Of a stretch of 64,000 nt of DNA, positions 505-53,809 are shown piece after piece. How positions within the stretch are numbered: the stretch's first letter is position 1; each line of letters starts with the position of its first letter. The stretch lies in NCBI GenBank assembly GCA_963665115.1, contig OY762007.1, positions 3,552,001 to 3,616,000 of the forward strand. Direction: 5' to 3'. The DNA comes from an uncultured Rivularia sp. Its GTDB lineage: Bacteria > Cyanobacteriota > Cyanobacteriia > Cyanobacteriales > Nostocaceae. A program made the translations under genes and the position numbers. The notes beneath the pieces are model-generated. The model saw only the letters and a list, made by a program, of their open reading frames with translations, was not told where the DNA came from and ran no database searches.

Positions 505-1608
505 ATGGGCAAATTAAATATTCTTATGCTGGGTGCTAGCCTGGAACAAAATGGAGGGATAGCAACTGTTGAAAAACTCATACTCCAACACGCTACTAAG
601 GATGTTGAGTTTCAGCATATAACCAGCCATGACGAAGGTACAATTCTTCATAGAATAAAGGTTTTCATCAAAGCTTTTGCCGTACTTTTATGGAATTTAG
701 TAAGTAGCAAATCCGATCTAATACACGTCCATATTTCAGACGGTGGTAGCTTGGTAAGAAAAGCAATCATTGTAATAATCGCTTTTCTTTTTAATAAACC
801 CGTATTGATACACGCACACGGGGCTGAATTTCAAGTAACTTACTCTAAACTTCCTAAACTAGCGCAGCTTTTTTTCAGTAAAATATTTCGTTGCTGCGAT
901 GATTTTATTGTTCTTTCCAAAACCTGGCAAGAATATTATATAAACAACTTAGGCTTAAACGAAAAACAAGTTGTTATTTTGCCGAATCCCACTGAATTAC
1001 CCGCTCAAATTCCCGATAGAACAAATACTTCATCTATTAAATTTGGCTTTTTTGGAAGAGTAGGTGCGCGTAAAGGAACATTTGATTTAATTAAAGCCTT
1101 CGCTCAAATTCCAGATACTTCAAAATCTGAATTAATTATCGCCGGAGATGGAGATATTGAAGAAGCGCGTAATTTAGCCAAAAGTCTCAACCTAGAAAAC
1201 AAAGTTCAATTTCTTGGTTGGATAGACTCTCAAACTAGAGATAAATTACTCGCTAATATCGACGTATTTGTTTTACCTTCTTACAACGAAGGTTTACCAA
1301 TGGCTCTTTTAGAAGCAATGGGTTGGGGCTTACCTGTTATAGTCACGCCAGTAGGTGGTATCCCTGAATTAATTACTTCCACAGAGAATGGTTTATTAGT
1401 GAATTCGGGAGATATCCAAAAGCTGTCTGAAGCAATGCAAGCATTGATTGAGAATGAGTCTTTAAGAATCTCTTTAGGAAACGCAGCCAGAGAAACTGTT
1501 ACTCCTTTCGATATCAAAGTTTATTCCTCTCAACTCCATCAAATTTATAACTCTGTATTGGAGTCTAGATCAAAAACTTCTCTTTCACCTGCTGGTGTGG
1601 GACAGTAA
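505..1608 (+). CDS. Glycosyltransferase family 4 (GT-B)
   Basis: HAHG motif, GRVGARKG, and DVFVLPSYNEGLPMALLEAM (E-x7-E) signature. Confidence 0.93.
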   Translation: MGKLNILMLGASLEQNGGIATVEKLILQHATKDVEFQHITSHDEGTILHRIKVFIKAFAVLLWNLVSSKSDLIHVHISDGGSLVRKAIIVIIAFLFNKPVLIHAHGAEFQVTYSKLPKLAQLFFSKIFRCCDDFIVLSKTWQEYYINNLGLNEKQVVILPNPTELPAQIPDRTNTSSIKFGFFGRVGARKGTFDLIKAFAQIPDTSKSELIIAGDGDIEEARNLAKSLNLENKVQFLGWIDSQTRDKLLANIDVFVLPSYNEGLPMALLEAMGWGLPVIVTPVGGIPELITSTENGLLVNSGDIQKLSEAMQALIENESLRISLGNAARETVTPFDIKVYSSQLHQIYNSVLESRSKTSLSPAGVGQ

Positions 1609-1836
1609 TTAAATTTTGGATTTTGCGGAAAGTTTAGCCTTCATAAGGTGCGCGGGATAAGCGCGTTGAGAGAACGTTGGGGTGTAGATGTTCTTCCCCC
1701 AAAACTTTCCTGCTCCAGATTTTGGATTTTGGATTAAATGTTTTATTTACCTAACACCCAAAGAAACCCGCGTTCTAAAACTAATGCAAGATATCGCATT
1801 AATAAACTCGCAAATTTATTAAATATCGGAGATTAA

Positions 1837-2598
1837 GTGATGAGAATAAATATCTGCGGAGTCAAAATTGACAATTACAGCTTTAATGATGCGGTAGAGC
1901 GCATTATAGATCGTGCTGTTACGGGAGTTATTCCTTCATATGTAGTAACTCCTAATGCACAACACGTTTTGAGTCTTCAGCGCGATGCTAATTTTCGCGA
2001 TATTTACGAAAAAGCTTTTCTAGCGGTACCTGATGGAGTTTCGTTGTTATGGTCTGCTAAATTCTTGCAAACACCCTTAAATGGTCGCGTAAATGGTACG
2101 GATTTGTTTGAAGAATTATCTGCTGTTGCCGAGCAAAAAGGACTGAAAATATTCTTACTGGGTGGTCGTTCTGGTGCTGCTGAAGAGGCTAAAAAAACTT
2201 TGCAAGCAAGACATTCCGACCTAAAAATAGTTGGAACTCACTGTCCACCCTATGGATTTGAATCTCAACCAGAAGAATTAGCGTTAATTAATTCCAAAAT
2301 TAAAGCAGCCGCACCAGATATTCTATTTGTAGGATTGGGCGCTCCCAAGCAGGAAAAATGGATATATGATAATTATCAAGAATTAGGAGTACCTGTTTCT
2401 TTAGGTATTGGAGTCAGTTTTGAATTAGTTGCCAATATGGTACAACGAGCGCCTTTATGGATGCAAAAATGGGGATTAGAATGGTTGTTCCGCTTGATTG
2501 TTGAACCAAAACGTTTATGGAAGCGTTACGTTATGGGAAATCCCCAGTTTATGTGGTTAGTACTCAAGCAACGACTTGGCTTTTACAAGCTTGCTTAG
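1837..2598 (+). CDS. WecB/TagA/CpsF family glycosyltransferase
   Basis: VVTPNAQH, PDGVS, RVNGTDL, FVGLGAPKQE, RAP..MQKWGLEWLFRL..EPKRLWKRY motifs. Confidence 0.93.
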   Translation: MMRINICGVKIDNYSFNDAVERIIDRAVTGVIPSYVVTPNAQHVLSLQRDANFRDIYEKAFLAVPDGVSLLWSAKFLQTPLNGRVNGTDLFEELSAVAEQKGLKIFLLGGRSGAAEEAKKTLQARHSDLKIVGTHCPPYGFESQPEELALINSKIKAAAPDILFVGLGAPKQEKWIYDNYQELGVPVSLGIGVSFELVANMVQRAPLWMQKWGLEWLFRLIVEPKRLWKRYVMGNPQFMWLVLKQRLGFYKLA

Positions 2599-2611
2599 GA
2601 ATTAATTATCT

Positions 2612-3788
2612 ATGTCTAAAAAAATGTTGACTAGACGAAAATTTTTATTTAGTCTAGGTGCTTTAACAACTATGGGTGCAGTGCTATTAGGTAAAGATGA
2701 GTTAAAACGTCAGCAAATTCTGGCTTTAGACGATCCAAATTGTGAATGCATCAAATATCCTGGTGATGAATCTTTAAGAGAAACGTGCTGCTAAGAAAAA
2801 TATTCTTTTTGGAACAGCCATACGCCATCCATTGCTTTTAACTGACAAAGAATATACCCAAAGCTTAATTAAAGAATGCTCAATATTGGTTTCAGAATGG
2901 GGATTTAAATGGCACGTCAACCCGAAAGCCTTACGTCCGACAGTCGAATCTTTTGACTTTACTGCCGCAGACAAAATGTTTAATTTTGCCCGCAGTCACG
3001 GTATGGAAGTTAGGGGACATACCTTAGTCTGGTATATCTCCTTGCCCCCTTGGTTTGAAAGTACAGTCAACCAACAAAATGCTAAACATTTTCTAGAAAA
3101 ACATATTCAAACCGTTGTCGGACGTTACCAAGGAGAAATGCATTCTTGGGATGTAGTCAATGAAGCTATCGAACCAAGAGACGGACATCCTGACGGTTTA
3201 AGAAAAACGCCGTGGTTGGAATTTTTAGGAGAAGATTATATAGATATTGCTTTTCGTTTAGCACATGAAGCAGATCCGAAAGCGATGTTGGTTTATAACG
3301 ATTATGGTTTAGTTTACGACGCACCGGAAGATGAAGCAAAACGAAACGCCGTAATTAAACTTTTAAAACGGTTAAAATCTCAAGGAACTCCCATTCATGC
3401 TTTAGGTGTTCAAGCTCATTTAGATGGCAGCGAAAGCAATTTTAATCCGAAGATATTAAAAGATTTTTTTGCTCAAGTTGCCGATATGGGTTTGAAAATC
3501 ATGATTACCGAACTCGACGTTAAAGACAAAGATTTACCAAGGAATGTACAAGTACGCGACAGAATAGTTGCTAAAGCCTACAGTGACTATCTAAAAGTTG
3601 CTTTGGAACAGCCAGCAGTTATTGCCGTTTTGACTTGGGGATTAAATGACCAACATAGTTGGCTGAATGAGTTTCAACCCCGAGATGACGGCGCACCTGT
3701 TCGTCCTCTACCGCTGGATATGGATGGCAAACGCAAATTTGCTTGGAATGCGATCGCGCGTGCTTTTGATGCAGCACCAAGTCGCTAA
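2612..3788 (+). pseudogene. Tat-exported GH10 endo-glycanase (xylanase family), split by a +1 frameshift near 2781 (probably a sequencing error)
   Basis: TRRKFL twin-arginine leader in 2612-2794; removing one A from GAGAAACG gives ESLRERAAKKNILFGTA, in frame with 2832-3788; GH10 motifs RGHTLVW, WDVVNE, YNDY, ITELDV. Confidence 0.88.
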
Positions 3789-4181
3789 ATTAAATTTGGC
3801 TTTGATTGCATTTCTTCAACACTTAAGGCGATCGCCAAGTAAGCTAATTAATGTTCTTATAGTATTTTTTTAATTATGATTATTTTAATTCTGTGATGCG
3901 AGTATTTTATCCGCCTTTTTTGTGAGTTAAAATATCATGATTAAATAGTAATATATCATGCAAATATCTTAGTATTCACTACTTATTACTTATTTTCGTT
4001 ATTGTCTGTTTTGCTACGAGAATACTTAAATCCTTTGTAGTTGATATTAAGTTATAAATATATTTATTTTATTACTGTAAAAAAATATTTTTATACGATT
4101 TTAAACAATTATCAGTGTCACAATGATGTCACATAATTTAATTATAGTTTAAGTAGAAATAACCAAGAAGTTATCAAAAAT

Positions 4182-5627
4182 ATGTCTTTTGTTAGTGAGT
4201 TATCAGGGAACAGCAACCTTCTCGATTTAAGGGCACCATCTTTAACACAATTACGCAAGAGAGTCGGTGCAATATGGCTTCGCATAATAACCCTTGTTGT
4301 AGTAGATGGAATAGGTTTGGGATTAGCCTGGAAGATGGCAGAAACCTACAGCAGAAAGTCTAATATTGAATGGGTTGAGCAAGACAATTTATTTTTTATT
4401 TTGTCAACTATCGTGATTCAAATTTGTCTGATTGCAACTCAAGGATTATACGAAGCTGGAGAAAAGCGGCGCGACTATTTTAACTTGAGCAAAACTATAA
4501 CATTCTCCTACTTTTTACTATTGCTTTTTGGATATCTGTATTTACAAAACGATTTCTTTCCTAGAGCAACCTTTATTACAGTATGGCTGTCGAGCATCGC
4601 CATTATTTGTTCGGGAAGATTTATGATGAATGCTGTTATTATGCGGCTTCGTAAACAAAACTTAATCACCTGCCCCACATATTTAATATGTTTGCCAGAA
4701 GATAAAAGTAAAGCAGTCAAGCTATTAGATAAAGAAAACTGTTACAATCTTGTAGGTTGGAAAAACGTTAATTCAATCTCTTCATCTAAAGGTCATTTAG
4801 CTGCCACCGTAGAAGAAATTATCCGTCAAGGAGTAGCAGAAGTATTTGTCTGTTCTTGGCAGTCTATAGAAAGTAGAATGTATCTTTACTGGAAGTTACG
4901 AAATGCTGGCGTTATCTTGCACATTTTGCCGATTGAACTACAGGCTATGGAGCAAAGATTGGAATTAAAAATGCTTGGTGGTATCCCAATCTTGAATTTT
5001 TTGCCACCAACTATTACTGGGAGTGATTTCCGGGTAAAACGGTACTTTGATTTTTGTAGTTCGGCACTGTTTATTTTATTTGCTTCACCAATTTATCTTT
5101 TGATTGCGTTACTAATCAAATTTGATTCTTCAGGCCCAATTTTTTACAAACAAACTCGCATTGGTTTGCATGGAAAACCCTTCAAAGTGTGGAAATTCCG
5201 CACAATGGTAACGAATGCAGATGAATTACAAAAACAGTTAGAAGCACGTAACGAAAATAAAGATGGAATTCTCTTTAAAATAAAAGACGATCCACGCATT
5301 ACCAAAGTAGGAAAGTTTCTCCGCCAGTATAGTTTGGATGAATTACCTCAATTATTTAACGTTCTTTTTAGAGAAATGAGTTTAGTTGGTCCTCGTCCTT
5401 TGCCTGTAAGAGATGTGGAGAAGTTTTCGAGCCACCACTTCATCCGTCAAGAAGTTCTCCCCGGAATTACAGGTTTATGGCAAATCTCCGGCCGCTCAGA
5501 TATTATTGATTTTGAGAAAGTGATTGACTTAGATAAAACCTACATGGAAAACTGGTCACTTTCATTGGATTTGCAGATTATTCTTCAAACAGTCAAAGTT
5601 ATTTTGGATAAAAAAGGAGCTTATTAA
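4182..5627 (+). CDS. Priming sugar transferase (WcaJ/WbaP-like polyprenyl-phosphate glycosylphosphotransferase)
   Basis: N-terminal TM helices; C-terminal KRYFD, KFRTM, DPRITKVGKFLR, SLDELPQL, PGITGLWQISGR. Confidence 0.93.
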   Translation: MSFVSELSGNSNLLDLRAPSLTQLRKRVGAIWLRIITLVVVDGIGLGLAWKMAETYSRKSNIEWVEQDNLFFILSTIVIQICLIATQGLYEAGEKRRDYFNLSKTITFSYFLLLLFGYLYLQNDFFPRATFITVWLSSIAIICSGRFMMNAVIMRLRKQNLITCPTYLICLPEDKSKAVKLLDKENCYNLVGWKNVNSISSSKGHLAATVEEIIRQGVAEVFVCSWQSIESRMYLYWKLRNAGVILHILPIELQAMEQRLELKMLGGIPILNFLPPTITGSDFRVKRYFDFCSSALFILFASPIYLLIALLIKFDSSGPIFYKQTRIGLHGKPFKVWKFRTMVTNADELQKQLEARNENKDGILFKIKDDPRITKVGKFLRQYSLDELPQLFNVLFREMSLVGPRPLPVRDVEKFSSHHFIRQEVLPGITGLWQISGRSDIIDFEKVIDLDKTYMENWSLSLDLQIILQTVKVILDKKGAY

Positions 5628-46594: not shown

Positions 46595-46827
46595 GGAACA
46601 GCAATCAGTTAGCAATTATCAATTTAAGAGTTTGCCCTCTAGTTGCCTATGTGACAGAGCTTTCGGATTTCGAGATGATATTCTGATAGGAAATTATTTA
46701 AAATAAGTATTAAAACTTGCATTTGTGCATAAGTTAAAATTGGAATTCACTATTCTAATATGGTAGCTAAATAATACTGCTATTCTGGAAACATTAAGCA
46801 GATTTAAACCTGTTGTCGCGAATCCGC

Positions 46828-47802
46828 ATGAACAAACGTGAAGAATTGCAAAAACTCGTCGATTTTCTAGAGGAGAAGATATTGCACTTACGGATGGCTA
46901 AGGTTACTGAAACCGATGCTTTAGCTATATTTAAAGCGGAAAAGCAGATTGAGGAAGCAGAAGCGGAACGGGATAGCATTAAACAAGAGATTGAAAATCA
47001 AAACACTTCAGCGAATAGTCGCAATTTATACAATGCTTTATTAAAACTTGGCTATCGCGAACAAGTACTGTTGTTCATAAAATTTCTCAAAAAACAATCC
47101 ATAGCAACATTTCTGCTCCACGGCTCACCAGATTATGGACAGCGTTGGTTACTGAATCGATTAATTACTCAACATATTCACCATGGTGCTACGGGTAAGT
47201 TGGTGCGAGTTCAACTCAACCGCATCGCACGCAGAAGCGATATTACTGCTTTATGGCGAGAATTAGGAGGTAGAGTGGGTTCAATTGGAACAAAACCTAC
47301 ACCCTCAGAGGTTGTTGAGCAAGTTTATAGGTGGTGGCAAACTCAAAATGTGATTTTGGTGTTTCACGATGTCGATTGTATGCCGCAGGAGTATTTACAG
47401 GAATTAATTCAGGAGTTTTGGCTACCATTGGCAAATCAAGCACGAAAGGTTGTTTCTGAATACCAGCTACTGATGTTTTTGGTAGATTATGAAGGTTTTA
47501 TTGGTACCCAGAACACCTTGTTTGTGGAAAAATTAGAACCTACTTGGGAACCGAAAATTCCGATTAAATTACCATCGATTACTCAATTTTGCGATCGCAC
47601 TTTAAATGAGTGGATTGAGACGGTAGAAATTGAATTTGATACCTTGCCTCTTATAGAAGCGATCAATAATACTGAAGATCAATTAGTCAAGGAAATATTA
47701 GACAATAGTGAAAATGGTGTTCCAGAACTAGCAATGTTAGAAATTTGTCACCTATGTGGCTGTAATTGGTATGAAGAGAAAGACAGATGGCTCAAACACT
47801 GA
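46828..47802 (+). CDS. Effector-associated-domain (EAD) + inactive STAND NTPase (iSTAND) component of a ternary conflict system
   Basis: N-terminal helical adaptor; degenerate P-loop LLHGSPDYGQRWLLNRL, VILVFHDV, LLMFLVD; overlaps the moxR start. Confidence 0.8.
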   Translation: MNKREELQKLVDFLEEKILHLRMAKVTETDALAIFKAEKQIEEAEAERDSIKQEIENQNTSANSRNLYNALLKLGYREQVLLFIKFLKKQSIATFLLHGSPDYGQRWLLNRLITQHIHHGATGKLVRVQLNRIARRSDITALWRELGGRVGSIGTKPTPSEVVEQVYRWWQTQNVILVFHDVDCMPQEYLQELIQEFWLPLANQARKVVSEYQLLMFLVDYEGFIGTQNTLFVEKLEPTWEPKIPIKLPSITQFCDRTLNEWIETVEIEFDTLPLIEAINNTEDQLVKEILDNSENGVPELAMLEICHLCGCNWYEEKDRWLKH

Positions 47803-48713
47803 GTAACAATCAACTTGAATATACAGGCAAAGTGCAGCCCCAGTGGGGTGAACGAGATGGCAACGGACAATTATTATATCCTTATTTACCTTATGAGGAA
47901 CTCGTAGAAGCTGTAAACTTGGCTATCTATTTAGAAAGACCACTTTTACTCAAAGGGGAACCCGGATGTGGTAAAACTCGTTTGGCTACTGCTGTGGCTT
48001 ATGAATTGGGTTTACCACTTGAGGCTTGGTATATCAAATCTACCACTCAAGCAAAAGATGGTTTGTATAACTATGATGCGGTGACTCGCTTGCGAGATGC
48101 CCAACTTGCTGCCGCAGGTAGAATAATTAAAGATGAGGATATTCCCCGGATTAGCGATTCCGCTACATACGTGAAATGGGGGCCATTAGGACGTGCTTTT
48201 CAGAACAGCCAGCGCACGGTGGTATTGATTGATGAAATTGATAAGGCTGACATTGACTTTCCGAATGATTTGTTATTGGAACTCGATCAACAAAAGTTTA
48301 TTGTTGATGAAACAGGAGAAGAAATTACAGCTAAGGCAGCACCAATAGTTTTTATTACCAGTAACGATGAAAAAGATTTACCAGATGCTTTTTTAAGAAG
48401 GTGTTTGTTTCACTACGTAGAATTTCCCACTCCCGAACGGTTAATAGAAATTATTAATTCTCATTTTCCCAATTCTCAGCAGCAGTTAGTAGCTAAAGCC
48501 GTAATTCGGTTTTTGAAGTTGCGGGATGAAATGGGGAAAGATAAGGGGGAAGCGGGGAAGAAGGTTAGTACCAGTGAATTAATTGATTGGTTTCGGGTTT
48601 TAAAACGGTATCCAGAAGACGAGGTTTTGAAGAAACTTGAAGGGAAATTACCTTATGCTGGGGTGTTGTTGAAGAGTTGGCAAGACCATGTACGGTATTT
48701 GAGGAAATCTTAA
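47787..48713 (+). CDS. MoxR family AAA+ ATPase
   Basis: Walker A GEPGCGKT, YDAVTRLRDAQ, Walker B VLIDEIDKADIDFPNDLL, ITSNDEKDLPDAFLRRC. Confidence 0.95.
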   Translation: MAQTLSNNQLEYTGKVQPQWGERDGNGQLLYPYLPYEELVEAVNLAIYLERPLLLKGEPGCGKTRLATAVAYELGLPLEAWYIKSTTQAKDGLYNYDAVTRLRDAQLAAAGRIIKDEDIPRISDSATYVKWGPLGRAFQNSQRTVVLIDEIDKADIDFPNDLLLELDQQKFIVDETGEEITAKAAPIVFITSNDEKDLPDAFLRRCLFHYVEFPTPERLIEIINSHFPNSQQQLVAKAVIRFLKLRDEMGKDKGEAGKKVSTSELIDWFRVLKRYPEDEVLKKLEGKLPYAGVLLKSWQDHVRYLRKS

Positions 48714-48727
48714 ATGATGCCTTGTTC

Positions 48728-48799
48728 GTCATTGCGAGTAGAACGAAGTGAAACGAAGCAATCCCAGCCCTTGCGATTGCTTCGCACAGCGAACAATGA
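48728..48799. repeat. REP-like palindrome between moxR and vWA
   Basis: GTCATTGCGAG...CAATGA outer arms; perfect stem CGAAGCAATC (48754-48763) / GATTGCTTCG (48775-48784). Confidence 0.75.
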
Positions 48800-48874
48800 A
48801 ATATACATATTGTGTGTAATTTACCAGATGCCATATGAGTGGCTGTGGAAATTGGTGGAGGAAGTGTAAGAGTT

Positions 48875-50230
48875 ATGAACACAAACGAACTGCCCCTCCA
48901 AGAACTCTTCACCAAATTAAGGGAAGCAGGTTTACCGCTCGGGATTGATGAGTATCAGTTAGTTTTGCGATCTTTGCAAGCAGGGTTTGGTGTTGCTGAC
49001 AAAGCTGCTTTGAAACGTTTGTGTCAAACTTTATGGGCTAAATCTGCTGAGGAAAAGTCTATCTTGGATTATCACTTTGAACAAGTGATGGTTAACGATG
49101 CAGCTGGGGTTGCATCAGAAACAGATAATCAAACTATTAATAAATTTCGTATTGTTCCTCTGGTAATTTTGGGAATATTAGCAGGTGGAATTATTTTTGG
49201 TGTTAGAGTCAGCCACAAACCACGAACTACACAAACAATCTCAACACCAACCCCAATAGCAACGGCAACTCCGGAACCACAACCACCCCAACAACCAGCA
49301 ACCGAGCCAGATCTAGCGAACACACAGCCAGAACAACCAACTCAGCCGGTAGAACCTATTCCTCGCACAATGCAGCCAAATTTTGCGATTTGGATGATTC
49401 TATTCCTTACAGCTACAACTTGTGAATATTTAGTTTATCGCTGGATAACTCATTGGTTGTCTAAACGCAAGCCTAAACCAAATTCTTCTGCTTCTGCTCC
49501 ACCAGAAACCAGTAAAGATGAGGTACAAGTAGTAAAATCAGTATTGCAAGGTAGCAGTAAACATTGGAGTAGTGAATTCTTTCCTGTTACCCAACGGCAA
49601 ATGAAACAGATGTGGCGTTATTTACGCCGTCCTGTACGTGAGGGGAAAGCTACGGAGTTGGATGTGGAGGCAACGGTTAACCACATTGGACATGAGGGTA
49701 TGTTGCTCGAACCTGTGTTGATTCCACCCAGGGTAAACCGGGCAGAATTACTGTTACTAATTGACCAAGACGGTTCTATGGTACCTTTCCATGCTTTATC
49801 ACAAAGATTAGCAGAAACTGCCTTACGAGGAGGTCGTTTGGGCAGAACTGGTATTTATTACTTTCACAATTGCCCTGTTGAATATCTGTACCGCGATTCC
49901 TATCATCAGCAAGGGGAATTAGTCAGCTATATTCTTAATCATGTTTGCTCTGGACGCACGGCTGTGTTAATTTTTAGCGATGCTGGTGCTGCTCGCGGTG
50001 ACAATAGCCAGGAGCGTTACCAATTAACTCAAGAATTTCTTACCAATTTAAAACAACGGGTACGTTACATTGCTTGGCTCAATCCCCTGCCAAAAAACCG
50101 TTGGTTTGGCACTACAGCAGGTGAAATATCTAGCCTTGTCCCGATGTTTGAAGTCAGTCGAACGGGTTTGCAGGATGCTATTAGTATACTCAGCGGACGC
50201 TCTACAAATTTTGAGGGGCACAGGAAATGA
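48875..50230 (+). CDS. vWA-domain protein of a MoxR ternary system, with a two-TM / Pro-Gln-Thr insert
   Basis: LFTKLREAGLPLGIDEY N-terminus, ELDVEATV, MIDAS-like LIDQDGSM, IFSDAGAARG, WLNP. Confidence 0.88.
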   Translation: MNTNELPLQELFTKLREAGLPLGIDEYQLVLRSLQAGFGVADKAALKRLCQTLWAKSAEEKSILDYHFEQVMVNDAAGVASETDNQTINKFRIVPLVILGILAGGIIFGVRVSHKPRTTQTISTPTPIATATPEPQPPQQPATEPDLANTQPEQPTQPVEPIPRTMQPNFAIWMILFLTATTCEYLVYRWITHWLSKRKPKPNSSASAPPETSKDEVQVVKSVLQGSSKHWSSEFFPVTQRQMKQMWRYLRRPVREGKATELDVEATVNHIGHEGMLLEPVLIPPRVNRAELLLLIDQDGSMVPFHALSQRLAETALRGGRLGRTGIYYFHNCPVEYLYRDSYHQQGELVSYILNHVCSGRTAVLIFSDAGAARGDNSQERYQLTQEFLTNLKQRVRYIAWLNPLPKNRWFGTTAGEISSLVPMFEVSRTGLQDAISILSGRSTNFEGHRK

Positions 50231-51930
50231 GCAGAATCAAACCCGAAGTTGCCCAACGACGCATCAAATCTTTTACCAAGCGCTTTGGAGAAGCACATCT
50301 GTATTTGGCTTATCATGCTGCTTTTCCTTTAGCACTAACACCGGATTTGTTATATGGTTTGTGGATTAATTCCCAAAAAGATATCCACGGAGAAGTTTTG
50401 GATATTCCTTGGATAGCTGTAGCGGATTTGTTACTTTCTGGTTTGTGCGATGAAGTGGGACATGAACTTTATGAGATGGATTTAGCTGTACGAAATCAAT
50501 TGCTAAAGCAATTACACTCAGATGCACGCTTCGGCAAACAGCGAATCGATCAACTTTCAGATTTCTTGCTCAAATATGTCCACCATCAGCTTCAGAGTCA
50601 CGATCCAGATATTCGAGATTTTGCCAAAACTCAGCAGTGGATAGCTTTAGCATATACCCAACCCAGTCAAGCCGCTCGCGAACTAGCATTGGCATTCTCG
50701 CAATTAGATGAGCAGGATAAAGCGGAATTGCTGCGAATGGCTTCATTAACAGAAACATTTGCCGAACCATTGAGTGATTTTCAACCGCTATTAATTTACG
50801 CTCGCGGTATGGGTAAGTTTGCTCGCGGTGATTTGTCAGCGGCAAAAGCTGAGATTAGACAAGCTCTCAAAAAAAGCAACAACATACAGATTGCCGATAT
50901 CAATTTACCTATCCCCGAACCAATAAAGCCCCCCTTTTTAAGGGGGATATCTCGCAGACAACTTCTCAAATGGACTGGCTTTGGAGGAGTCGGTTTGGTG
51001 ACAGCATTAGTCACCCGCGAATTATCTCAAACTTTACAATTACAAACCTTTGATTTTGTAACCGTTACCGTAAATGCCCAAGGAAATATCATCAACCGTC
51101 GCAACGGTGAAGCGAAATATTTTGTGGAAGACTTAGGGAACAATCTACCTTTGGAAATGGTACGGATTCCGGGGGGAACTTTCAAAATGGGTTCCCCAGC
51201 AGATGAAGCCCAGAGAGTTGACAGTGAAAGCCCGCAGCATCAAGTTACGGTTCCAGAGTTTTTTATGGGAAAGTATGCAGTTACTCAAGCTCAGTATCAA
51301 GCAATTATGGGTGAAAATCCTTCAAGATTCAAAGGCGAAAATCGACCTGTGGAAACAGTATCTTGGAATCAAGCAGTGGAATTTTGCAAAAAGCTGAGCG
51401 AACAAACCGGACGTATTTATCGTTTACCCAGCGAAGCTGAATGGGAATATGCCTGTCGGGCTGGGACTACTACACCTTTCCATTTTGGTGAGACTATTAC
51501 GACTGAGTTAGTTAATTACAACGGGAATTATACATATGCTTCTGCACCAAAAGGTGAATATCGCCAACAAACAACAGATGTCGAAAGTTTTTTTCCTAAT
51601 TTGTTTGGTTTATATCAAATGCATGGTAATATATTGGAGTGGTGTTTAGACACCTGGCATGACAACTATCAAGATGCGCCCTCAGATGGCAGTGCTTGGA
51701 TCGGTAGCAATAAAGAGAACCGTTCTTTAAATTGGAAAGAACTTGAGCGGTTATATATTAATTTAGATAATAATGGTAATTTTCCGATGCTGCGCGGTGG
51801 TTCTTGGTTCTACGGTCCGAGGGGTTGCCGGTCGGCGTTTCGTTTAGGGGACGAGCCGGTCAACCGCGACGGCGACTCCGGGTTTCGGGTTGTGGTTTCG
51901 GGTGCGAGGACTCTTTTCTCTTCACTTTAG
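50227..51930 (+). CDS. Split-vWA partner domain + TM + FGE-sulfatase (FGS/CLec-fold) domain; candidate DGR target
   Basis: YHAAFPLALTPDLLY N-terminus; MVRIPGGTFKMGS, VTQAQY, RLPSEAEWEYACRAG, GLYQMHGN..EW, LRGGSW, GFRVV; ATGA overlap with the vWA gene. Confidence 0.9.
   Translation: MSRIKPEVAQRRIKSFTKRFGEAHLYLAYHAAFPLALTPDLLYGLWINSQKDIHGEVLDIPWIAVADLLLSGLCDEVGHELYEMDLAVRNQLLKQLHSDARFGKQRIDQLSDFLLKYVHHQLQSHDPDIRDFAKTQQWIALAYTQPSQAARELALAFSQLDEQDKAELLRMASLTETFAEPLSDFQPLLIYARGMGKFARGDLSAAKAEIRQALKKSNNIQIADINLPIPEPIKPPFLRGISRRQLLKWTGFGGVGLVTALVTRELSQTLQLQTFDFVTVTVNAQGNIINRRNGEAKYFVEDLGNNLPLEMVRIPGGTFKMGSPADEAQRVDSESPQHQVTVPEFFMGKYAVTQAQYQAIMGENPSRFKGENRPVETVSWNQAVEFCKKLSEQTGRIYRLPSEAEWEYACRAGTTTPFHFGETITTELVNYNGNYTYASAPKGEYRQQTTDVESFFPNLFGLYQMHGNILEWCLDTWHDNYQDAPSDGSAWIGSNKENRSLNWKELERLYINLDNNGNFPMLRGGSWFYGPRGCRSAFRLGDEPVNRDGDSGFRVVVSGARTLFSSL
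51787..51915 (+). other. Putative DGR variable region (VR)
   Basis: 78/120 G+C and 11/120 A over 51791-51910 (hand count), versus 14/60 G+C in 51721-51780; A-free scaffold codons with NNC/NNT codons at variable positions. Confidence 0.72.
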
Positions 51931-51970
51931 CCCTTTTGCACTTTTCACTCTTTTTTCTTTATCCTAATCC

Positions 51971-51983
51971 CCGCCGAAGGCGG
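51971..51983 (+). promoter_or_regulatory. CCGCC-GAA-GGCGG hairpin (DGR cis-acting stem-loop and/or terminator)
   Basis: Perfect 5-bp GC stem with GAA triloop ~40 nt after the stop codon, followed by a T-tract. Confidence 0.6.
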
Positions 51984-52119
51984 TAATTTTTTTAGGTATT
52001 TAATTTTTTAATTTTTAGTTAGTCTTAAATCTGGCATGACTTAGTATTTTTATTATTTCAGTAAGTCTGGTGTTTTGTAGACGCTACAATAAATCCATAA
52101 AACCTTCCCAGCCTTAACC

Positions 52120-52779
52120 ATGTCCCTCGCCAAAGAAGTAGAAACAACCCAATTGTGCCCAGAAGATGATATTTTTCCTATAGGCGATCTATACAGCGAC
52201 GAACCTCCCTTGGAAACTGAACTGCATCTAGAGCAAATAATGCTCTTAATTAAATGTCTAAAATGGTTGTGGCGAGACAGAAACGATTTTTACGCTGCGG
52301 GAAATTTAACAATTTATTATAGCCAGAATAAACGTAAAACCGAAGACTTCCGGGGACCAGATTTTTTTGTGGTGCGAGATACAGAACGCAAACTCCGTAA
52401 AAGCTGGGTAGTGTGGGAAGAAGATGGTAAATATCCCCATGTAATTGTAGAAATTCTTTCCGAATCAACAGCGAATACAGATAAAGAAGCAAAGAAAAAA
52501 CTTTACCAAAATACCTTCCGCACACCCGACTATTTTTGGTTCGATCCATATACTCTAGAATTCGCAGGATTTCATTTAGTAGATGGTGAATACGAACCAT
52601 TAGAACCTAACGAACAAGGACATTTGTGGAGTAAACAGTTAGGGCTGTATCTAGGTATTCATGAAGGGCTATTGCGATATTTTACTCAAGAAGGAAAATT
52701 GGTTCCCACACCAGAAGAACAAGCAGAAAAATTAGCTGCAAAGTTGCGAGAATTAAATATTGACCCTGATAGTATTTAG
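52120..52779 (+). CDS. Uma2 family endonuclease
   Basis: SDEPPLET.LH, FRGPDFFVV, RKSWVVWEE.GKYP.VIVEILSEST, YFWFDP. Confidence 0.92.
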   Translation: MSLAKEVETTQLCPEDDIFPIGDLYSDEPPLETELHLEQIMLLIKCLKWLWRDRNDFYAAGNLTIYYSQNKRKTEDFRGPDFFVVRDTERKLRKSWVVWEEDGKYPHVIVEILSESTANTDKEAKKKLYQNTFRTPDYFWFDPYTLEFAGFHLVDGEYEPLEPNEQGHLWSKQLGLYLGIHEGLLRYFTQEGKLVPTPEEQAEKLAAKLRELNIDPDSI

Positions 52780-52803
52780 AGATTGGCAATAAAAAATTAA
52801 CCG

Positions 52804-53598
52804 ATGTTCCCACAACACCAATTTAACGAACTGCAAAACCTCTACGAATTACTAGAAGAGAAAATAATTCGCTTGCGAACAGCTAAAGCTATCGAAACAA
52901 GTGCAGCAGTTATTTTCCAATTAGAAAAGCAGATTCAAGAAGCCGAAGCGGAACGAGATAAAGTAGCTCAAGAAATTGCCCAATTCAATCAACAACAACC
53001 TACCTTTATTACAAGCAACAACAGTAATCAAACTGATATCAAAACAATTTTAATTCTCGCTGCAAATCCCAAAAATACCTCAAGATTGCGATTAGAAGAA
53101 GAAATCAGAGAAATTGATGAAGGGTTGCGACGGGCTAACAAGCGAGAGCAATTCAAACTAGAGATGAAATTAGCGGTGCGTCAACGAGACTTCTACCGAG
53201 CAATTTTAGATACTCAGCCCCAGATTGTTCATTTCTGCGGACATGGTGCGGGAGAAGATGGCATCATTTTGGAAGATGAAATGGGAATAACAGCTTTTGT
53301 ACAAGCAGATACTTTGGCGAGTTTGTTTAAGCTATTCGCCAACAAGGGAGTAGAGTGTGTTGTGCTAAACGCTTGTTATTCAGAAGTTCAAGCCAACGCT
53401 ATCAGCCAACATATTAACCATGTAATTGGGATGAATCGAGCAATTGGGGATAAAGCAGCGATTAATTTTGCCGTAGCTTTTTACGATGCTTTAGCTGCTG
53501 GGGAAGATGTAGAATTTGCTTTTGAGTTAGGTTGTTCTCAACTAGTTGGTTTAAAAGAAAATCAAACCCCTACACTTAGAATAAAAAATACGCAATAA
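52804..53598 (+). CDS. EAD + CHAT (caspase-like) peptidase
   Basis: ILILAANP..TSRLRLEEE, PQIVHFCGHG (His), VVLNACYS (Cys), AVAFYDAL; N-terminal 50 aa homologous to the iSTAND N-terminus. Confidence 0.9.
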   Translation: MFPQHQFNELQNLYELLEEKIIRLRTAKAIETSAAVIFQLEKQIQEAEAERDKVAQEIAQFNQQQPTFITSNNSNQTDIKTILILAANPKNTSRLRLEEEIREIDEGLRRANKREQFKLEMKLAVRQRDFYRAILDTQPQIVHFCGHGAGEDGIILEDEMGITAFVQADTLASLFKLFANKGVECVVLNACYSEVQANAISQHINHVIGMNRAIGDKAAINFAVAFYDALAAGEDVEFAFELGCSQLVGLKENQTPTLRIKNTQ

Positions 53599-53809
53599 AA
53601 CGATTTTTCTTACGTGAAAAACGCTGGATTATTTTATCGACTACTAGTTTAATAATTCCCAATATCTTCATTGCTTGGTTTAATCATCGCGGCTACCATA
53701 CCTGAATTAAACAGTGAATTATATTTATTCAGATTTTGTCTTAAACACGAAACCCATGTAGAGACGTAGCACTGCTACGTCTCAAACAGCTACGTCTCAA
53801 ACTCAAATC

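Follow-up and report, generated by a model that had tools for sequence, protein, structure and literature searches.

Ternary systems built on a MoxR ATPase and a vWA protein, with an inactive STAND (iSTAND) as third component, are the closest described relatives of the locus analysed here. Kaur et al. (2020; PMC7159879) noted transmembrane (TM) segments in 28% and FGS domains in 22% of ternary cases, and described a coupling rule based on EADs. A separate vWA-L gene was described for a minority of cases (Kaur et al. 2021; PMC8195603). Dore et al. (2024; PMC10907252) described putative antigen sensors varied by diversity-generating retroelements (DGRs), with a sensor-first direction of signal flow. 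In Nostoc punctiforme, the CHAT/MoxR/vWA/DGR-target locus Npun_F4885-F4892 is co-expressed and mutated at adenines (bioRxiv 10.1101/2024.09.03.611090). Two models of ternary systems have been published, both so far experimentally unproven, and they differ over which end of the system is the sensor and which the effector. We analysed one such locus, at positions 46828 to 53598 (+ strand) of a 64,000-nucleotide stretch (the window) of DNA from an uncultured Rivularia sp. (contig OY762007.1, forward-strand positions 3,552,001 to 3,616,000). With evenly balanced confidence, we propose an iSTAND/MoxR/vWA ternary system working as a split, membrane-tethered, NLR-like receptor, with a lectin tip exported by twin-arginine translocation (Tat).

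The locus comprises six open reading frames (ORFs) on the + strand. ORF1 (46828..47802; 324 residues from its ATG, with a TTG start at 46813 also possible) matches the iSTAND family (PF19995, 109 bits against a cut-off of 24, E 3e-31). ORF2 (47787..48713, 308 residues) encodes a MoxR AAA+ ATPase (AAA_5, E 2e-13), ORF3 (48875..50230, 451 residues) a CoxE-type vWA protein (VWA_CoxE, E 2e-12) and ORF4 (50227..51930, 567 residues) a vWA-L domain followed by an FGS/lectin domain (FGE-sulfatase PF03781, E 2e-50). Last are ORF5 (52120..52779, 219 residues), a Uma2 protein of the PD-(D/E)xK family (PF05685), and ORF6 (52804..53598, 264 residues), which joins an EAD9-like hairpin to a CHAT caspase-fold protease (PF12770, E 5e-13). 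A first-pass annotation had listed these six co-oriented genes, their domains and two gene overlaps, at 47787-47802 and at an ATGA in 50227-50230; all are present as described. Its class assignment, an iSTAND MoxR-vWA ternary system with a split vWA and an EAD-coupled caspase, is also right, and gene order is conserved. The core genes are each single copy in the source genome (G000), a one-contig assembly of 8.69 Mb and 99.93% completeness that may not include plasmids.

Loci of this kind are common. PF19995 matches occurred in 83 of 151 family genomes and in none of 14 control genomes. Synteny was compared at 20 loci, a non-random sample hand-picked from the top PF19995 rows with frames of 320-345 residues favoured. 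All 20 hold the four core genes (EAD-iSTAND, MoxR, vWA and a separate vWA-L), the vWA of L103 being cut by a deletion. The vWA and vWA-L are fused in one protein in L038, L039 and L072. A CHAT or caspase gene with the same adaptor as the iSTAND adjoins 17 of the 20 picked loci. Three layouts occur, with the adaptor N-terminal or C-terminal and the gene upstream or downstream. Here the adaptor was scored by a hidden Markov model (HMM) that we built for this coiled hairpin; L100 and L109 were labelled as caspases by their likeness to three Pfam-tested proteins. The nearest named ORF4 homologs carry the labels Rivularia, Mastigocoleus and Calothrix, which points to a filamentous cyanobacterium of the Nostocales type as host. 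PADLOC returned generic ATPase, PDC-S03 and CHAT matches only. Because of the synteny at the picked loci and the published descriptions, we regard the wiring as a common, largely described layout. The annotation had called the system class known and this wiring not shown by the sequence; most of the layout is already in Kaur 2020/2021 (TM-bearing vWA, FGS, EAD coupling and a separate vWA-L gene) and the Nostoc punctiforme report. Taken by itself, the locus is an unremarkable example of an already described, common and experimentally unproven class, the iSTAND subtype of MoxR-vWA ternary systems. The papers searched yielded no counter-invader phenotype for such systems.

The proposed receptor would be divided between ORF1 and ORF4. 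Briefly, STANDs have the order effector, nucleotide-binding domain (NBD), helical domain with a GxP motif, winged-helix domain (WHD), arm and sensor, which sets the domain boundaries used here. ORF1 has an EAD9-like hairpin (residues ~4-62), an inactive STAND NBD and a helical domain ending 25 residues past G297-x-P299. Its P-loop is degenerate, as had been claimed, and a GxxxxGK[ST] P-loop is found in 0/37 aligned iSTAND homologs. The GxP motif (G297, P299) is invariant in all 37. Every one of these proteins ends 23-26 residues beyond it, which is where a WHD would begin. The slot N-terminal to the iSTAND holds an EAD, a trypsin or a caspase, depending on the locus; the trypsin or caspase of other loci is fused straight onto the iSTAND. 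Searching PDB sequences with the iSTAND profile gave nothing significant.

The vWA-L domain (50227..50925, + strand; ORF4 residues 1-233) is predicted to form a winged helix, an arm and TPR-like helices, the C-terminal half of a STAND/NLR. The top four rows of a structure search with its model were STAND/NLR or Cdc6/Orc1 chains. The same was true of all 13 rows, among 50 listed, that start within the first 10 residues, and of 6/6 such rows in a second look. A language-model search placed MalT-WHD clusters at ranks 2-3 (0.76-0.78), which we treat as a lead only. In all of 85 new, longer homologs the start of the domain lies among the first 30 residues, and in G000 its HMM matches ORF4 alone. 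WD40, TPR, MORN, CHASE2, periplasmic-binding, FHA, REC or C-type-lectin-fold (CLec) domains occupy the slot that follows. This variable slot is like the sensor slot of STANDs and so supports ORF4 as the sensor half.

Several searches gave no support to such a reading. With Foldseek, vWA-L had no match at E<=0.001; Pfam gave no WHD match over 32 vWA-L members, and PDB sequences no WHD support for vWA-L. With hhalign, comparison of 32 and then 131 vWA-L sequences with five STAND paralogue sets was not significant. Over 3,849 ORFs, a WHD HMM placed no STANDs in its top 20; the nine in its top 200 were mostly aligned at unrelated places. No unsplit iSTAND/vWA-L fusion was seen among the top matches listed, which are close relatives only. 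Two hallmarks of STAND/NLRs are missing here: an active P-loop, and an NBD, helical domain and WHD on a single polypeptide. From the fold of vWA-L and the gene boundaries, ORF1 is predicted to be the adaptor and NBD half, and ORF4 the winged-helix/arm/sensor half, of one split STAND/NLR. Literature searches found neither a split-STAND or winged-helix reading of vWA-L nor the internal Tat anchor considered below; supplementary files and source data to the Kaur papers lay outside those searches and may bear on both. The first-pass annotation had missed both points.

Between the two halves lie the motor genes. The MoxR protein, claimed to be an intact AAA+ ATPase, retains Walker A (GEPGCGKT), Walker B (LIDEIDK), sensor-1 (ITSN) and the arginine finger (FLRRC). 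In ORF3, the helical N-terminus is separated from the vWA domain (DQDGSM) by an insertion of TM1 (residues 92-110), a 54-residue Pro/Thr/Gln loop and TM2 (residues ~170-190). Hydropathy is 2.3 for TM1 and 1.5 for the weaker TM2, which is followed by basic residues. From the order of TM1, loop and TM2, the vWA domain would therefore be on the cytoplasmic side. In relatives the loop is swapped for WD40 or other domains; it is a predicted second variable extracytoplasmic slot. In one vWA protein of 1,784 residues (L032:6031-11385), WD40 repeats totalling ~1,350 residues separate the two TM segments.

The two folded domains in the model of ORF4 lie either side of a candidate uncleaved Tat signal-anchor (50950..51030, + strand). 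This consists of an internal twin-arginine motif, S242-R-R-Q-L-L-K, and a weakly hydrophobic Gly-rich stretch. Compared with motifs of the S/T-R-R-x-F-L-K type, L takes the place of F. Among 90 vWA-L/CLec homologs, 46 have a short linker (hydrophobic in one), one has a 166-residue insert and 43 have a linker of 44-100 residues. The 43 long linkers carry RR (34), RK (2), RH (2) or no such motif (5). RR thus makes up 34/38 dibasic motifs, with no KK, and the consensus is S/T-R-R-[QRK]-[FVL]-[LI]-[QK]. Both RH cases and one motif-less relative (P0015, P0023, P0028) have also lost the hydrophobic stretch. Hydrophobic segments occur in 41 of 45 non-lectin fusions (a set hand-picked from 85), and the RR motif in 0/41. 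A further 130 representatives gave the motif in 1/62 anchored non-lectin proteins, a 327-residue protein seemingly cut short. Where the vWA bears TM segments, 9/10 loci have an anchored partner (four RR-CLec, three CHASE2, one periplasmic-binding and one TPR); extracytoplasmic modules occur in 0/9 soluble-vWA loci. The sets share ancestry, so all these linker and locus counts overstate independence.

Class V Tat substrates, known from FecR (PMC13673990, PMC12036975), are defined by a Tat signal that is internal, stays uncleaved and follows a folded domain in the cytoplasm. The genome encodes TatC (E 9e-67). Tat export of the lectin is probable, with the periplasm or the thylakoid lumen as possible destinations. 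The annotation had called the sensor extracytoplasmic. This is supported only for homologs with the twin-arginine anchor, and not for the 46 of 90 with a short linker lacking it. No Tat signal in cyanobacterial DGR targets was found in literature searches. The Legionella DGR target LdtA is reportedly exported by Tat. Elsewhere in the genome, a 459-residue kinase-like protein at G000:C1:1565905 (+) has an internal SRR motif and a hydrophobic stretch at residue 276; one of three internal matches in a crude genome scan, it is a further class V candidate.

The predicted tip is an FGS/C-type-lectin-fold domain of the DGR-target kind (51040..51930, + strand). The claimed FGS domain was recovered by the PF03781 match, and its CLec-fold model superposes on Treponema TvpA (2y3c) with a root-mean-square deviation of 2.2 A (E 6e-16). 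Formylglycine-generating enzymes have two catalytic cysteines five residues apart. ORF4 has cysteines at 74, 387, 410, 473 and 534 only, and was rejected as such an enzyme. Within the domain lies an orphaned DGR variable repeat (VR; 51787..51915, + strand), a frozen allele. Compared with the template of a relative, G018, mismatches affect 23/33 adenines and 8/96 other positions (p 2e-11), and 21/23 adenine mismatches are at codon positions 1-2. A second relative's template gave 21/31 and 9/98, respectively. A GC stem-loop with a T-run (51971..51983, + strand; 5-bp stem, GAA loop) is likely to be the DGR target hairpin and is a possible terminator. The same hairpin follows the VR in G015, G018 and G025, as it does in L093 with its intact DGR. 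Its folding signal is weak (z -1.7), and the 5-bp stem and 3-nt loop compare with 7-10 bp and 4 nt in the phage DGR consensus (PMC3240598).

The DGR cassette, comprising Avd, a reverse transcriptase (RT) and a template repeat (TR), has been lost. A deletion junction lies at 52078..52082. Positions 51788-52078 of the window correspond to L061 4780-4486, and 52082-52199 to L061 897-780. Sequence past the VR is joined straight to sequence past the template. The 3.6 kb of L061 between the matched parts hold Avd, an RT split by an insertion sequence (IS) and the TR. At the orthologous site of G018, the target, Avd, IS-split RT and template repeat are placed between vWA and Uma2, an adjacency we infer, as its three contigs end at the joins. 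G009 retains the template alone. In another genus, L093 has a whole DGR on one contig, with mismatches at 18/31 adenines and 1/89 other positions.

No DGR RT was found in G000 at E<=1e-60, whereas 7/26 congeners have one; the best G000 match to a DGR RT is 29% identical. Seven RVT_1 matches were rejected as DGR RTs, and the three inspected are group II intron-type, CRISPR-linked and short retron-like. Avd was not found in G000, where plasmids may not be in the assembly. Searches of G000 for a TR gave the VR only, whether by blastn, by motif scans, with the relatives' TRs or by scanning both strands with tolerance at adenines. With no RT, Avd or TR found, the allele would be fixed unless machinery comes in trans. 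Contigs of X1-X3 are identical to the window over 50000-53800 and include no contig with another VR, but they may be the source of the window, and rare variants are lost from contigs, so they were not counted as evidence. Hence, the sensor described as diversifiable is not so in this genome, and 'hypervariable' applies historically, by the adenine bias of the VR, but not to this genome. Loss of DGR machinery after selection had already been suggested for all3226 (PMC7517822).

Stepwise DGR loss appears to recur in other genera. At L101:9037 and L105:9389, template repeats remain by the targets, and neither fetched locus matches an RT or Avd. The G018 allele (L061 VR at 4781, - strand) is interrupted by an in-frame stop where the template has an adenine, and its RT (1227-3931) is IS-split; a null allele may therefore have been frozen. 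G007 and G011 (L028:9535, L042:3095) have an anchorless CLec with a differing C-terminal end, and show no adenine bias to local templates. At this site the whole lectin module has apparently been swapped between close relatives. G000 also has the FGS gene G000:C1:7259215-7260018 (-) and six more; the end of one paralogue is rich in GC and resembles a VR, with a stem-loop downstream, and is possibly a second orphan DGR target.

At the other end of the proposed circuit, the N-terminal helical hairpins of ORF1 and ORF6 are identical at 32/50 positions (64%). An EAD HMM scan of G000 found two copies only, in these two genes. The match to EAD9 (PF19962, cut-off 25) was 18.2 bits for the ORF6 hairpin (E 0.002), and ORF1 had no match. 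Among distant iSTAND homologs, one reached 25.4 bits and others 14.6-23.4. The EADs of the first-pass annotation thus stand as a shared hairpin, but the family match is weak and below cut-off. The hairpin is read as EAD9-like, and a brand-new EAD family was rejected. ORF6 also has the claimed CHAT protease, with the H147/C191 dyad intact here and invariant in 22/22 homologs. In L096, L111 and L112, vWA-L forms a fusion with two or three CHAT domains in tandem; these loci also have a CHAT-EAD gene.

In the mechanism that we propose, the lectin would bind a foreign or envelope ligand outside the cytoplasm. The single-pass anchor would pass the signal to the cytoplasmic WHD and arm. A MoxR hexamer on the membrane-bound vWA would drive the ATP-dependent rearrangement in place of the STAND's own P-loop, and the WHD/arm and iSTAND would switch or oligomerise. 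Clustered EAD9-like hairpins would then recruit and activate the CHAT protease. For the filament cell concerned, the outcome might be death, dormancy or proteolytic signalling. Binding specificity in this strain would be held at one DGR-written allele, and Uma2 is probably outside the circuit. Seen directly are the parts themselves, the dead P-loop, intact MoxR and CHAT motifs, the shared adaptor and the loss of the DGR cassette. A fuller evolutionary account is more tentative, and we hold it at rather less than even confidence. Here, an ancestral STAND would have been cut between helical domain and winged helix, lost its ATPase and taken a MoxR-vWA motor between its halves. In this subfamily, a 30-residue internal Tat anchor would put the hypermutable lectin across the membrane, making a trans-membrane NLR that triggers a caspase-fold protease. 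Strains could freeze a successful allele by deleting the DGR.

Other explanations differ on where the lectin resides, which way the signal flows and what it achieves. The twin-arginine segment could be an amphipathic or positive-inside tether that leaves the lectin cytoplasmic, a topology that might be combined with any of the readings. It would suit the low hydropathy (17-residue mean 1.45), the pLDDT <50 at the segment in the model, the absence of the segment from about half of homologs and the predicted cytosolic location of most cyanobacterial DGR targets in published work. Against it stand the consensus and the RR in 34/38 dibasic motifs, with no KK. RR and hydrophobic stretch are lost together in P0015, P0023 and P0028, the motif is nearly confined to lectins (0/41 and 1/62 anchored non-lectin fusions) and low hydrophobicity is described as typical of Tat signals. 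A cytoplasmic lectin is rather unlikely. As for direction, Kaur et al. (PMC7159879 and PMC8195603) proposed that the iSTAND senses the invader, perhaps as nucleic acid. The MoxR-vWA pair would then remodel, and an EAD-recruited protease would cut vWA-L and release the lectin as effector, vWA-L being no more than a linker, or else a WHD relic put to that use. Enzymes among the vWA-L partners (caspase, CHAT, TIR, histidine kinase) fit an effector slot. Conversely, CHASE2, periplasmic-binding domains and a DGR-diversified lectin behind an anchor are hard to see as released effectors. The effector-NBD / WHD-arm-sensor order suits the reverse flow, for which Dore et al. argued without structure. 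We consider sensing by the iSTAND unlikely; the evidence supports the sensor-first direction of Dore 2024.

Sensor-first flow need not end in conflict. The same architecture might serve as an envelope or developmental signalling device, its protease giving a non-lethal signal. Vallota-Eastman 2020 favoured signalling, and many partners are ordinary signalling domains (CHASE2, PstS, REC, GUN4). Moreover, Esr, the one experimentally tested sensing pathway with MoxR and vWA that was found, leads to phosphorylation and transcription rather than death. However, Esr is itself a threat response, and DGR diversification, fast tip swapping and frequent breakage in close relatives are typical of conflict genes. 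Such a device is, in our view, decidedly unlikely. That breakage could also mean that the locus is a decaying relic, under no selection in this strain since DGR loss. Orthologous copies in G007, G008, G009, G013, G018 and G025 are broken by frameshifts, deletions or IS insertions. In this copy all six frames and the catalytic motifs are intact, and the VR is open, whereas that of G018 has a stop. Decay is the least probable of these explanations, and a quite improbable one.

Genes at the edge of the locus appear less tightly bound to it. Uma2 has 13 other tblastn matches in the genome and is present at 1/20 picked family loci; it was rejected as a core part and is likely a lineage-specific passenger. 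A 189-nt gap with the stem-loop and T-run separates ORF4 from ORF5, so Uma2 and CHAT may be transcribed separately. Hence, of the single six-gene locus first annotated, the core stands and Uma2 does not, and one unit is doubtful. A promoter scan gave 18 matches against 17.6 expected, which is chance level, and an Rfam search gave no match. Several genera have a DUF2887 (Rpn-like) gene where this genus has Uma2 (L031:11052-11840, L097:7783-8589, L101:10897-11721, L103:8464-9279 and L105:1398-2186; the label was Pfam-tested for L105 only). As this gene sits in the place of Uma2, a loose slot for a PD-(D/E)xK-type protein may exist. A dispersed intergenic repeat (48728..48799) lies between MoxR and vWA, outside the system, with copies 83-90% identical elsewhere in the genome. 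A second kind of short dispersed repeat is at 53700-53790; both kinds have many genomic copies. At G000:C1:1706078-1711592 (-) is a CRISPR adaptation-like module, labelled from reading the sequences: a WYL-type gene, an HD protein, a stand-alone RT, a Cas1-like protein, a four-helix-bundle gene and a Cas2-like protein.

If vWA-L is the missing winged-helix half of the iSTAND, signal flow would follow NLR logic. The split-STAND reading would then extend to a domain that forms 1,948 clusters at 50% identity, and to a system present in over half of the family genomes sampled. The Tat-anchored version, if true, would be a FecR-like substrate of a second kind and would give an NLR-like switch a means of trans-membrane sensing. 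The strain offers a natural fixed allele for ligand hunting, with matched templates in relatives.

Compared with the ternary systems of Kaur et al. (PMC7159879, PMC8195603), this locus has the same EAD on an inactive STAND, MoxR, TM-bearing vWA, FGS domain, separate vWA-L and EAD on a neighbouring peptidase. The available text of those papers has vWA-L as an alpha-helical linker with no winged helix or Tat signal, whereas a split STAND is suggested here. As in the sensors of Dore 2024 and the Nostoc punctiforme locus, a CLec target lies next to MoxR, vWA and CHAT; unlike them, this copy has lost Avd, RT and TR, and searches of the genome revealed no DGR that could act in trans. Read together, ORF1 and ORF4 follow the effector-NBD-HD(GxP)-WHD-arm-sensor order of STAND/NLR receptors (MalT, Apaf-1, CED-4, plant NLRs and Avs3), and recruitment of a caspase-fold protease by an adaptor would recall the apoptosome. 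Unlike such receptors, the predicted one consists of two polypeptides, has a dead P-loop and a sensor predicted to lie across the membrane, and is encoded with the MoxR-vWA pair between the genes for its halves. ORF4 resembles FecR in its folded cytoplasmic N-domain, putative internal uncleaved twin-arginine anchor, folded C-domain predicted to be exported and predicted trans-membrane signalling. Its N-domain is longer (about 240 residues against about 80), and the predicted exported part is a DGR-type lectin. Finally, the Esr pathway of Schaalia odontolytica (bioRxiv 10.64898/2026.09.08.750141) differs in its beta-propeller sensor and kinase/FHA output, the available text describing no iSTAND or caspase. 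It runs from a surface sensor via MoxR and vWA to a cytoplasmic output, and was tested against an epibiont. Hence, on that account, a MoxR-vWA pair can relay a surface threat signal.

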